From the NCBI RefSeq assembly GCF_013122565.1, contig NZ_CP053258.1: DNA of 64,000 bases, one strand, 5' to 3'. The position numbers and the translations under genes are program-made. Below are positions 52,434 through 55,212 of the stretch, in pieces. The notes under the pieces are model-generated. The model worked only from the letters and a program-made list of their open reading frames with translations, made no database searches and had not been told where the DNA came from. Numbering within the stretch: position 1 is the stretch's first letter; each line of letters begins with the position of its first letter. This stretch comes from Escherichia coli (lineage in GTDB: Bacteria; Pseudomonadota; Gammaproteobacteria; Enterobacterales; Enterobacteriaceae).

Positions 52434-52506
52434 AAAAAGGCCACTCGTGAGTGGCCAAAATTTCATCTCTGAATTCAGGGATGATGATAACAAATGCGCG
52501 TCTTTC
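52434..52506 (-). ncRNA. micA: MicA (SraD) Hfq-dependent sRNA, antisense in the gshA-luxS gap
   Basis: Minus-strand sequence GAAAGACGCGCATTTGTTATCATCATCCCTGAATTCAGAGATGAAATTTTGGCCACTCACGAGTGGCCTTTTT matches MicA as I recall it, including the terminator hairpin and U-tail. Confidence 0.9.
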
Positions 52507-53090: not shown

Positions 53091-53107
53091 TCAGTGGAAC
53101 AAAAGAA

Positions 53108-53140
53108 GCCGGGCAGGTGACACCACCGCCCGGTTTTTTT
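53108..53140. terminator. Bidirectional intrinsic terminator shared by luxS (+) and the HD-Pnk gene (-): GCCGGGC..GCCCGG plus T7
   Basis: Hairpin and T-tract read in sequence; the HD-Pnk stop codon overlaps the T-tract. Confidence 0.75.
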
Positions 53141-54251
53141 ACCTTTCAATCACCCGATACTCCACGCTATGTGCTTCATCAGGTTGAGGAACTTCCAGCC
53201 TTGAGGCCATCCGCAGCACGACCGCTTCAGGAACTGCATACTCGCGTCTGGCATTTTGCTGCTTCCATTGCGTCCATGGCACTTCCAGATAAACGATTTT
53301 TACTCGTGCGCCGTAAGCCGTAAACAGACTGATGAGCTGGCTACGCAGCTGGCGGGTAATGTTCGTTGCATTCCAGATGAACGGCTTTTTCTGGCGTAAA
53401 AAAACGCGTGCCTCTTCTTTTGCCTGTTGCACAATACGCCCGGTGGCGGTTTTGTCGTCCGGACTGGCATTGATTCGCCGCCGCATATCATCAAGGCTGA
53501 TAACGTCAATTCCCTGGCACTGTTCACTGATATAGCGATCTTTGCCCATACCCGGTAAGCCACACAGCAAAATAACCTCAAAAGGTTCAGCCCCCCAGGG
53601 AACAAAATCAGGAGAACTTTGCTCATGAGTCAGGTAGTGCCAGCGTGCGGAATCAGAAACGAACGGGCGCACTTTTCCCCAACACTGTTGCTCCTGGCAA
53701 AACAGCTCGAACAGATCGATGCGTTCCAGCATTGATTGCTGATCCGGGCTTTGGCGACCAAGCAGATCGGCACGAGCAAGCAAAGCGAGCAGACGCGTGT
53801 CGATGCGCATTGCAGCCGTGAGCAGCAAACGCTCCGGTTCCGGACGTTCCAGTAACCACAGCGGTAACCCATGCAGACGCACCAGCGCAACAATTTGCTC
53901 GCGTAGCACGAACGGCGTAGGGATATCGCGCCATAAAATTTGTCGGGCCGTCAATTCGCCCCGCCGAGCATGGCCAGGCGACTGAATACGTCCGTTTTCC
54001 TGCACGGTAGTGCTGCGCTTTTCAACATCATGCAATAACGCCGCCGCCCATAAAACTTCCTGCTGTTGAGCGGGGAGTTGCTGGAATTCTGGCAGAGTAA
54101 CGAGGGCGTTCAGCACCATTTCGGTATGCACGCCGACGTCGCCTTCACCATGATGCTCCGGGTCTTGTGGCGTGTGATGCATCTCCTCAACCCAACTGAA
54201 ACGCTGGAGTAGTGTCGACCAGCGTTTATCGTCGGTAAGCTGCCAAATCAT
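53139..54251 (-). CDS. Bifunctional RNA/DNA end-healing enzyme candidate: N-terminal HD-domain phosphoesterase fused to a C-terminal P-loop polynucleotide 5'-OH kinase (HD-Pnk type)
   Basis: 370-aa ORF; HD motifs ([18 protein letters not shown], later His/Asp); Walker A GLPGMGKD followed by an acidic DVISLDD segment; ATGA overlap with the upstream ligase gene; absent from the K-12 luxS-emrB junction as I recall it. Confidence 0.75.
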
Positions 54252-54955
54252 GACTGTTCTCCATAAGCGAACTCATGGGCCATCCGCGCCCGTTGCCAGT
54301 GTCGTTTCCAGTGCACGGTGGTTTTGACATGATTTTTGCGCACATACTTGAAGACGTTATGCGAAAAGTCAGCGACGGAAAACGCATCACGATTCCGGCT
54401 GACAATGCCTTCCAGCGTACAGGGTTGCCCGGTTTGTGTATCCCAGGGATCGAACGCGCCGCGCGCATTGGTCAGTGCCAGAAAATCACGTTGCCAGCTT
54501 TTTTCATCATTCCCCGGCTGCGGACCGGAGATTTCGGGAACGCAGGGGAAATCAAACAGAGCGGCGTAAAACTGCACCTCTTCCCAGCTCAGCCACATAT
54601 CCTGGCAGCGAACGGCAAACAGGTAAAAGTCCTGTTCCAGCGCGCGGTATTCAATGGAATGAACGGCGTAGAGATTTTCACCAAACAGTTCCAGATCGCC
54701 GAGATCGTTTTTCAGCAGTTGCCAACGCTGGCGAATTTTATAAGTCCATGCCGACTGCGTAGGCGCAGCATGGGAACGGGCAAACACGCCGTAGCGGTTA
54801 AGGCAGTTATTTTCGCCGTCGAGTTTTTCTGTGTGCACCAGTTGCGCAATGGCCTGTAAATCCTGCCAGTAATCGGCGTTAATGCGGTCATCGCTGGTGG
54901 TGCCAGGGGAGAAAGGATAATGCCAGGTTCTCCCGTATTTTCGTTGGGTATTCAT
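54248..54955 (-). CDS. ATP-dependent RNA ligase-like covalent nucleotidyltransferase (small Rnl-type)
   Basis: 235-aa ORF with motif I KLDG (Lys44), FGEN motif III-like, EGIV motif IV, FKYVRK motif V; stop overlaps the HD-Pnk start. Confidence 0.75.
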
Positions 54956-55176
54956 AATAATCCATTATTTTGTGTGTAATAAATGTACGCCCGCGAGGGT
55001 GCGAGTTATGGGGTTAAAAGAAAAATGTGAGTATCACCCGCGAAAGCGAGGGCGAAGGAAAAAGAGAATTAACAACCTGAGCGAATGCTCAGAACCGGTT
55101 AATGGTGAATGGAAGAGTTTGGGGCGGCGAAAAGATACACCGAATGAGTGGATAAAACAACCGTTTGCAGAATGAG

Positions 55177-55202
55177 CAAATAAAAAGGGAGCCGAAGCTC
55201 CC
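55177..55202 (-). terminator. Intrinsic terminator of emrB (GGGAGC-TTCG-GCTCCC hairpin plus T-rich tail on the minus strand)
   Basis: Hairpin 10 nt downstream of the emrB stop. Confidence 0.75.
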
Positions 55203-55212
55203 TTTGACAACC

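Follow-up and report, generated by a model that had tools for sequence, protein, structure and literature searches.

The window analysed here is a 64,000-nucleotide (nt) stretch of Escherichia coli DNA (assembly GCF_013122565.1, contig NZ_CP053258.1). On its minus strand lie two overlapping genes, a putative ligase gene that we call LIG (54248..54955) and, directly downstream, the gene of an end-healing partner, HD-Pnk (53139..54251). LIG runs from ATG to stop and encodes 235 residues that appear to form a stand-alone adenylyltransferase of RNA-ligase type, homologous to DR_B0100 (LigB, DdrP) of Deinococcus radiodurans. HD-Pnk encodes 370 residues with an N-terminal HD phosphoesterase and a C-terminal P-loop polynucleotide kinase and is a homolog of DR_B0098. 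The stop codon of LIG and the start codon of HD-Pnk share the 4 nt ATGA (54248..54251, minus strand), an arrangement of translational coupling. The original prediction, made from the letters alone, gave no strand and suggested that LIG is a minimal ligase that depends on an HD-Pnk partner. The open reading frame (ORF) and the peptides that it quoted are all present, and the partner is the overlapping gene of the same operon.

The same coding boundaries are annotated by RefSeq on a 98%-identical E. coli chromosome, with the product name 'RNA ligase family protein'. The Pfam model RNA_ligase (PF09414, Rnl2/Rnl5-like clade), 171 positions long, matches LIG residues 38-205 from its position 2 to its end (E=4.8e-28). 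A word-indexed search returned 2,157 relatives, and an exhaustive HMMER search of 50%-identity representatives returned 1,280, of which 744 fall below 1e-10. Pairwise ratios of nonsynonymous to synonymous substitution (dN/dS) of LIG against alleles from Escherichia, Klebsiella, Kosakonia, Phytobacter, Superficieibacter and Enterobacillus are 0.03-0.11, which places LIG under strong purifying selection. Given the Pfam match, the numerous relatives and the low dN/dS, the ORF is far beyond a chance reading frame. Antisense ORFs inside LIG, such as one of 194 residues on the plus strand (54275-54859), were rejected as genes and are regarded as shadows of the conserved sense frame; the 194-residue frame recurs in 25 related loci. 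No NCBIfam model matches LIG, its relatives in UniProt and the AlphaFold Database (AFDB) are all unnamed 'RNA ligase domain-containing' proteins, and a literature search for the E. coli gene found no paper.

Conservation was assessed in an alignment of 67 diverse LIG homologs (alignment A2) reaching down to 27% identity. Eight residues are invariant (K44, D46, G47, E93, Y103, E182, G183 and K203) and six more (R60, F113, V185, R187, V205 and R206) are conserved in at least 90% of the sequences. Motif I, EKLDGEN (54809..54829, minus strand like all motifs of LIG), contains K44 (54824-54826), the predicted AMP-attachment lysine of the KxDG element. It is followed in canonical order by motif III, FGENLY with E93 (54668..54685), a motif IIIa-like FYLFAVR with F113 (54608..54628), motif IV, EGIVSR with E182 and G183 (54395..54412), and a motif V variant, KYVR, spanning K203 to R206 (54338..54349). 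A motif Ia-like GVFARSH around R60 lies at 54770..54790; the labels Ia and IIIa are suggested by position only. All motif coordinates were confirmed by translation.

A complete set of covalent-nucleotidyltransferase motifs, as originally predicted, is therefore present and conserved. The choice of Lys44 as adenylylation site is supported by a homolog: it aligns with K40 of DR_B0100, and the K40A protein loses its AMP adduct (PMC1997131). For motif V the expectation stands in part. While K203 is as invariant as K44 and the glutamate of EGIV, the motif is not a classical K-x-K but K203-x-V205-R206, with valine in place of the second lysine and an arginine one position further, and conservation of the other lysines, K207 and K211, is limited to close relatives.

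Outside the catalytic motifs, LIG carries an N-terminal signature from K6 to R24 (54884..54940) that lies beyond the Pfam model and is specific to the family. It reads K6-Y7-x-R9-x-x-H12-x-P-x-S16-P-G-x-x-x-D22-D23, and its residues K6, Y7, R9, H12, S16, D22 and D23 are conserved in at least 90% of the 67 homologs, a conservation equal to that of the catalytic motifs. The segment is confidently placed in the single-chain AlphaFold2 (AF2) model. The opposite end is a basic tail, H209-S235 (54251..54331), with conserved H209 and W216 and low or variable AF2 confidence. The isoelectric point (pI) of residues 206-235 is 11.0, compared to 4.9 for the core.

The AF2 model, built from the 67-sequence alignment, has a mean predicted local distance difference test (pLDDT) score of 94.6 and a predicted template modelling (pTM) score of 0.91. 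A Foldseek search of the PDB with this model returned almost exclusively ligases, with TM-scores of about 0.5 and identities of 14-20%; the superposition covers about 175 of the 235 residues, at 2.8-2.9 Å. The top matches are the RNA ligases NgrRnl, T4 Rnl2, archaeal Rnl3, Trl1 and REL1, and the adenylyltransferase domains of RNA ligases rank above capping enzymes and above DNA ligases, which score 3-5 Z units lower. This is the nucleotidyltransferase fold that had been expected. At the sequence level the true ligases in the PDB were reached only by the diverse-alignment profile, which matches the ligase domain of Candida glabrata Trl1 (E=2e-4) and NgrRnl (E=9e-4), and not by the single sequence or a close-homolog profile. 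Matches of the latter two to hemocyanins, the designed WD-repeat protein Tako8 and picornavirus VP2 were rejected as additive repeat-protein artefacts. The profile alignment pairs K44, D46, E93 and E182 of LIG with K170, D172, E227 and E312 of NgrRnl, which are mutation-studied residues according to the titles of deposited mutant structures.

LIG consists of the bare nucleotidyltransferase domain. The Pfam domain is preceded by about 37 residues, motif I begins at residue 43 and the protein ends some 30 residues past motif V. There is no OB domain, nor a C-terminal domain like that of Rnl2 or an N-terminal one like that of Rnl5, as the prediction of a ligase without accessory domains had it. 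Since the Pfam match, the fold matches, the invariant catalytic residues, the purifying selection and the AMP adducts of homologs all support this enzyme class, we assign LIG, from its sequence and modelled fold, to the covalent nucleotidyltransferases of RNA-ligase type.

HD-Pnk and the company of related ligases

The kinase half of HD-Pnk matches Pfam AAA_33 at residues 226-355 (E=1e-30) and the match to HD is weak; NCBIfam recognizes the kinase segment of bacter_Pnkp and HDIG. BLASTP aligns the protein with DR_B0098 at 30% identity (E=2e-32). Among 81 homologs the HD ligands H34, H74-D75, H94, H127 and D162 and the P-loop residues G234, G236 and K237 are invariant. The dN/dS of HD-Pnk is 0.03-0.13. 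The kinase half is basic (pI 9.2). Its Walker A motif reads G-L-P-G-M-G-K-D (residues 231-238, 53538-53561), where aspartate replaces the usual serine or threonine after the P-loop lysine. The same replacement is found in 78 of the 81 homologs, and the canonical GKS only in the Deinococcus protein. A GKD P-loop is unusual for kinases, and the clade presumably contains active ones.

A close relative of LIG is present in 330 species, counting one genome per species, and we examined the best 80 loci, which belong to Enterobacterales, Bacteroidota and one metagenome-assembled genome of Neisseriaceae. A homolog of HD-Pnk lies directly downstream of the ligase gene on the same strand in all 80. The two ORFs overlap in 61 of 79 loci and are at most 30 nt apart in 76 of 79. 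LIG is better conserved than its partner, with an identity between phyla of 62-68% for LIG and 50-58% for HD-Pnk. LIG and HD-Pnk are an obligate, translationally coupled pair across phyla. No further neighbour is universal among the 80 loci, and the genes that flank the pair in particular lineages have housekeeping roles (dnaB, alr, tyrB and aroK among them). In a Dysgonomonas species a 276-residue ORF without NCBIfam match (locus L075, 7669-8499) is inserted between LIG and HD-Pnk; it is a positional analog of the PARG gene in the Deinococcus operon described below.

The sole functional neighbour that recurs across phyla is a gene for an RtcB-family RNA ligase, found near the cassette in 14 of the 80 loci. 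Serratia species (loci L014-L019, e.g. L014:5218-8816) carry rtcB2 (TIGR03073), prfH (TIGR03072), LIG and HD-Pnk in this order, with all four ORFs overlapping or tightly spaced and a gap of 57 nt between prfH and LIG. In several Bacteroidota loci (e.g. L059:1916-8818) genes for RtcB, an AAA+/FtsH-like protein of 703 residues and a 392-residue unknown protein stand upstream of LIG. Genes for Tpt1, MTase-HIT and PARG were sought near the same 80 close loci and were not found.

In distant relatives the ligase domain lies within long, mostly eukaryotic proteins. It is fused to P-loop domains of the polynucleotide-kinase type in 13 of 26 long relatives and to 2H or PTP phosphoesterase domains of the 'Swiss Army Knife' (SAK) type in 7 of 26, in agreement with the architectures of the AFDB matches. 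These kinase and phosphoesterase fusions suggest that the ligase domain has repeatedly been wired to end-healing activities across evolution. A 650-residue protein (P0177) has the order ligase, P-loop kinase, ligase and so holds two ligase-domain copies in one polypeptide, and several apparently eukaryotic proteins of 1,000-2,400 residues carry one or two copies beside PTP-SAK and 2H-SAK domains. Two proteins considered as LIG-HD-Pnk fusions were rejected: P0167 resembles a chimera or a frameshifted gene call, and the part common to P0165 is only a kinase-like segment.

The cassette between luxS and emrB

Alignment to the empty site of E. coli O104:H4 delimits the two-gene cassette to 53095..55211. 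In genomes without the cassette this place is taken by a 58-nt spacer between the convergent genes luxS and emrB; K-12 MG1655, where emrB and luxS are adjacent, is one of them. We found the cassette in 998 of 5,426 complete E. coli genomes, always on the chromosome, in single copy in all but one, and with an intact LIG ORF. Its genes are always annotated as 'RNA ligase family protein' and either 'ATP-binding protein' or 'AAA family ATPase'. Among the carriers are ST131, SE15, Nissle 1917, PMV-1 and O145 RM9872, the last of which is 99.7% identical to the window.

The order emrB-LIG-HD-Pnk-luxS is also found in Klebsiella spallanzanii, Kosakonia, Phytobacter, Superficieibacter and an Enterobacter species. 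Because the position is shared across genera, the cassette seems to be a long-time resident with repeated loss and not a recent insertion. Some cassette-less E. coli genomes carry an IS200C transposase at the same intergenic site, and the luxS-emrB spacer is therefore a recurrent insertion point. The LIG alleles of E. coli show nucleotide identities of 90% to 99.7%. When the window is compared with a second E. coli allele (locus L003), synonymous divergence (dS) is 0.28 in LIG and 0.08 in the adjacent HD-Pnk; this much higher divergence in LIG suggests that the cassette has a history of mosaicism or recombination.

Upstream of LIG, the 228 nt between the emrB terminator and the start codon (54956..55183, minus strand) are conserved in Escherichia, Klebsiella, Kosakonia, Phytobacter and Superficieibacter. 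Conserved blocks include GGTTGTTTTATC, GTGTATCTTT and CTTCCATTCAC, and a hairpin, CTGAGC-loop-GCTCAG (55092-55077), shows compensatory changes in one genus that preserve its pairing. A candidate sigma-70 promoter on the minus strand would consist of TTGTTT (55160-55155), a 17-nt spacer and TATCTT (55137-55132). The region contains no LexA box, no sigma-54 consensus and no Rfam family. It could be a promoter/operator followed by a structured leader or attenuator. At the other end of the cassette, between the convergent luxS and HD-Pnk genes, a GC-rich hairpin with flanking T and A runs (53108..53134) partially matches a terminator and is likely a bidirectional one. The small RNA MicA (Rfam RF00078, 83.9 bits) lies at 52435-52506 on the minus strand between gshA and luxS as in K-12; its position therefore indicates an ordinary chromosomal context.

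Function of the cassette

We propose, with a probability of about 0.6, that LIG is the sealing component of a two-gene, ATP-dependent 'heal-and-seal' cassette for nucleic acids, most probably for broken RNA. The HD domain would convert 2',3'-cyclic-phosphate or 3'-phosphate ends to 3'-OH and the P-loop kinase would convert 5'-OH to 5'-phosphate; both activities have been demonstrated for homologous HD-Pnk enzymes, the kinase in PMC6097658 and PMC1997131 and the phosphoesterase in the 2017 work as described in PMC6097658. K44 would attack ATP to give LIG-(lysyl)-AMP (step 1), as demonstrated in homologs, after which the AMP would be transferred to the 5'-phosphate and a phosphodiester formed. 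The coupling to end healing is supported by the invariable HD-Pnk gene downstream, the overlap of the ORFs, the same order in Deinococcus and the kinase and phosphoesterase fusions of distant relatives. RNA is favoured over DNA because the nearest folds are those of RNA ligases, 2H domains occur as fusion partners, RtcB, PrfH and Tpt1 genes occur as neighbours, and LIG has no LexA box upstream. The 2H domains act on cyclic-phosphate ends, which are specific to RNA.

Since LIG is a catalytic domain only and lacks the accessory module of other RNA ligases, recognition of the substrate would presumably come from HD-Pnk, from another factor or from the architecture of the damaged RNA, such as a tRNA or rRNA cut by ribotoxins. 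Recognition supplied from elsewhere would account for the failure of purified homologs to get beyond step 1. The behaviour of T4 Rnl2 offers a parallel: in the work of Ho et al. (2004), which produced PDB 1s68, its isolated N-domain is reported to carry out steps 1 and 3 and to fail at step 2. A domain-only ligase would thus be expected to stall unless a partner or a special substrate supplies the contacts. The translationally coupled HD-Pnk is the obvious candidate for the missing contacts; its kinase half is basic and the LIG core acidic. The originally suggested minimal ligase dependent on HD-Pnk is a plausible, unproven hypothesis, against which the biochemistry of the homologs partly argues.

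A tblastn search of plasmids with LIG matched the D. radiodurans megaplasmid MP1, at a locus encoding an RNA ligase family protein (210 residues), a TIGR02452/PARG protein and an AAA ATPase (413 residues), with DraRnl a few kb away. This is the operon DR_B0100-DR_B0099-DR_B0098 (PMC6300522). LIG residues 6-216 align with DR_B0100 at 35% identity (BLASTP, E=1e-26). In Runella slithyformis the ligase ORF overlaps the start of HD-Pnk, and Tpt1 and MTase-HIT genes are nearby, the latter 152 nt away (Shuman's laboratory: Munir & Shuman 2017, Munir et al. 2018; PMC6097658). Cytophagales relatives are 62-65% identical to E. coli LIG, and we infer that the Runella ligase is its ortholog.

Several observations weigh against a heal-and-seal function on broken RNA. 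Sealing under defined conditions has not been demonstrated for any member of the LIG family. According to Blasius et al. 2007 (PMC1997131), DR_B0100 becomes covalently linked to AMP when given ATP and ligated neither DNA nor RNA, alone or with DR_B0098 and DR_B0099. The Runella protein likewise forms enzyme-AMP and sealed no 3'-OH/5'-PO4 substrate (PMC6097658). The sole positive report, Kota 2010 as related in PMC6300522, describes ligation of DNA by DR_B0100, and only with DR_B0098 and PprA, the latter not known from E. coli. The Deinococcus operon is induced by radiation, and mutation of DR_B0098 (DraHD-Pnk) causes sensitivity to ionising radiation and mitomycin C, pointing to DNA damage (PMC6300522). 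In our own analysis, no convincing natural LIG-HD-Pnk fusion was found among the long relatives, and an AF2 prediction of a LIG-linker-HD-Pnk chain from 19 genome-paired sequences gave no confident complex (pTM 0.65, with a drop in confidence at the LIG termini). As to a damaging agent, neither protein matches a PADLOC defence-system model, and the surroundings of the E. coli cassette hold no toxin or nuclease gene that would suggest one.

Tentatively, the heal-and-seal proposal can be narrowed. The cassette may be a second, ATP-dependent route for repair of ribotoxin damage, complementary to RtcB, in which sealing occurs only in a particular context or with non-standard end chemistry. For example, the ribosome or HD-Pnk may have to hold the loop of a cut rRNA or tRNA in place. 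Such a restriction would explain nearly two decades of negative in vitro ligation for the LIG family. We consider this narrower version possible but well short of probable.

A more doubtful alternative, and the rival that survives best, is that the lysyl-AMP serves something other than the sealing of 3'-OH and 5'-PO4 ends. It is conceivable that 5'-adenylylation ('capping') of a phosphorylated end is the final product, that ligation requires a 3'-OH,2'-PO4 end as in fungal Trl1 and so gives bacterial Tpt1/KptA a substrate, or that AMP is passed to an acceptor other than nucleic acid. The two homologs that finish step 1 and fail on every standard substrate (PMC6097658, PMC1997131) fit this idea, as does a 2'-phosphotransferase-linked pathway raised by the authors of PMC6097658. 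So do the K-x-V-R in place of K-x-K in motif V, the slightly better reach of our profile to the Trl1 adenylyltransferase domain than to NgrRnl, and the accessory genes for modified ends found elsewhere, namely Tpt1 and MTase-HIT in Runella and PARG in Deinococcus. Deinococcus PARG removes ADP-ribose from 5'-phosphate ends. However, genes for Tpt1, HIT and PARG are missing from the E. coli cassette, and LIG conserves every residue on which characterised ligases depend in steps 2 and 3. Moreover, the Runella HD domain is said to remove 2'-phosphates besides 3'- and cyclic phosphates (Munir & Shuman 2017), which would destroy a required 2'-PO4. K-12, which we take to carry kptA, is without the cassette.

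Repair of DNA breaks with 3'-phosphate and 5'-OH ends, a role suggested for LigB of D. radiodurans, would use the same two enzymes and is in our view unlikely. It would account for the radiation induction of the Deinococcus operon and for the requirement of DR_B0098 for resistance to ionising radiation and mitomycin C, and the PprA-dependent DNA ligation speaks for it. The title of a 2017 paper also names HD-Pnk a 'DNA/RNA end-healing enzyme'. Enzymes of the Rnl5 group, the nearest structural relatives, seal duplex nicks, and DraRnl has a radiation phenotype (PMC5397189). Against this, Blasius et al. obtained no DNA ligation under many conditions that included the operon partners (PMC1997131), and the phenotype of the DR_B0100 mutant is disputed (PMC6300522). 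The missing LexA box upstream of LIG in E. coli, the recurrence of the RNA-repair modules RtcB, PrfH, Tpt1 and 2H as neighbours or fusion partners, and the precedence of RNA ligases over DNA ligases among Pfam and fold neighbours all point away from DNA.

A decaying or catalytically dead remnant in an accessory island, suggested by the absence of the cassette from 82% of complete E. coli genomes and of detectable ligase activity in homologs, is effectively refuted by the low dN/dS of both genes, the identity and invariant catalytic residues of LIG between Enterobacterales and Bacteroidota, the intact ORF in every carrier and the adenylylation competence of the homologs.

With the enzyme class of LIG settled, the substrate of the family is a gap that has stood since 2007. 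E. coli is an entry point to this old question, together with the substrate hypotheses above, because carriers such as ST131, Nissle 1917 and the Shiga toxin-producing O145 belong to genetically tractable and medically relevant lineages, and because the absence from K-12 puts a clean null background at hand beside natural carriers. RtcB2-PrfH, which rescues and re-ligates 16S rRNA and ribosomes cut by colicin E3 (PMC9304027, PMC9223846), is encoded beside LIG in Serratia and points to concrete substrates. The N-terminal signature, the basic tail and the variant motif V are obvious targets for mutagenesis. If the RNA-repair reading is true, the cassette would act as an accessory determinant of toxin tolerance in both pathogenic and probiotic strains of E. 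coli; if it is a route of ribotoxin repair, it would give ST131, Nissle 1917 and O145 a resistance trait against colicins or contact-dependent RNase toxins.

Comparison with known systems

By homology LIG is a further member of a known family and no new kind of system. Its family has been in the literature since 2007, the link to HD-Pnk followed in 2017-2018, and the E. coli gene was already annotated by homology. DR_B0100 and LIG both consist of an adenylyltransferase domain only (210 and 235 residues) and have in common the N-terminal signature KYxxxxHxPxSPGxxxDD, the motif I lysine (K40 and K44) and an operon order in which the ligase comes first. The two systems differ in that a PARG/TIGR02452 gene stands between ligase and HD-Pnk in Deinococcus, whereas the E. 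coli cassette has two genes with overlapping ORFs. The Deinococcus operon is on a megaplasmid, radiation-induced and near DraRnl, whereas the E. coli cassette is chromosomal. The kinase P-loop is the canonical GKS in Deinococcus and GKD in the E. coli clade. Neither the Tpt1 nor the MTase-HIT gene of the Runella cluster is near the E. coli cassette.

The adenylyltransferase domains of the Rnl5 ligases (NgrRnl and DraRnl) and of T4 Rnl2 are 14-20% identical to LIG. Rnl5 enzymes have in addition an N-terminal OB-like domain, so that motif I of NgrRnl is at residue 170 of 340, and T4 Rnl2 and REL1 have a C-terminal helical domain that nick recognition and step 2 require; LIG has neither, and of the Rnl2 targets (316-319 residues) the N-domain alone aligns. 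In comparison to Rnl5 and Rnl2, LIG has its own N-terminal signature, a basic C-terminal tail and the K-x-V-R form of motif V.

The combination of kinase, phosphoesterase and ATP-dependent ligase follows the same logic as T4 Pnkp with Rnl1, bacterial Pnkp/Hen1, fungal and plant Trl1 and the eukaryotic SAK proteins. The healing phosphoesterase of the cassette is an HD domain, in contrast to a DxD acid phosphatase, a calcineurin-type or a 2H enzyme. The ligase is a separate, minimal polypeptide, with no Hen1 methyltransferase and no tRNA-specific C-terminal domain. Trl1-type ligases, of the Rnl1 clade, carry kinase and CPDase domains in covalent linkage. RtcB has an unrelated fold, is GTP-dependent and joins 3'-phosphate or 2',3'-cyclic-phosphate ends directly to 5'-OH. 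The LIG/HD-Pnk route would be an alternative to RtcB that depends on ATP and remodels the ends. Both the cassette and RtcB or RtcB2-PrfH are accessory, patchily distributed repair modules in Enterobacterales.

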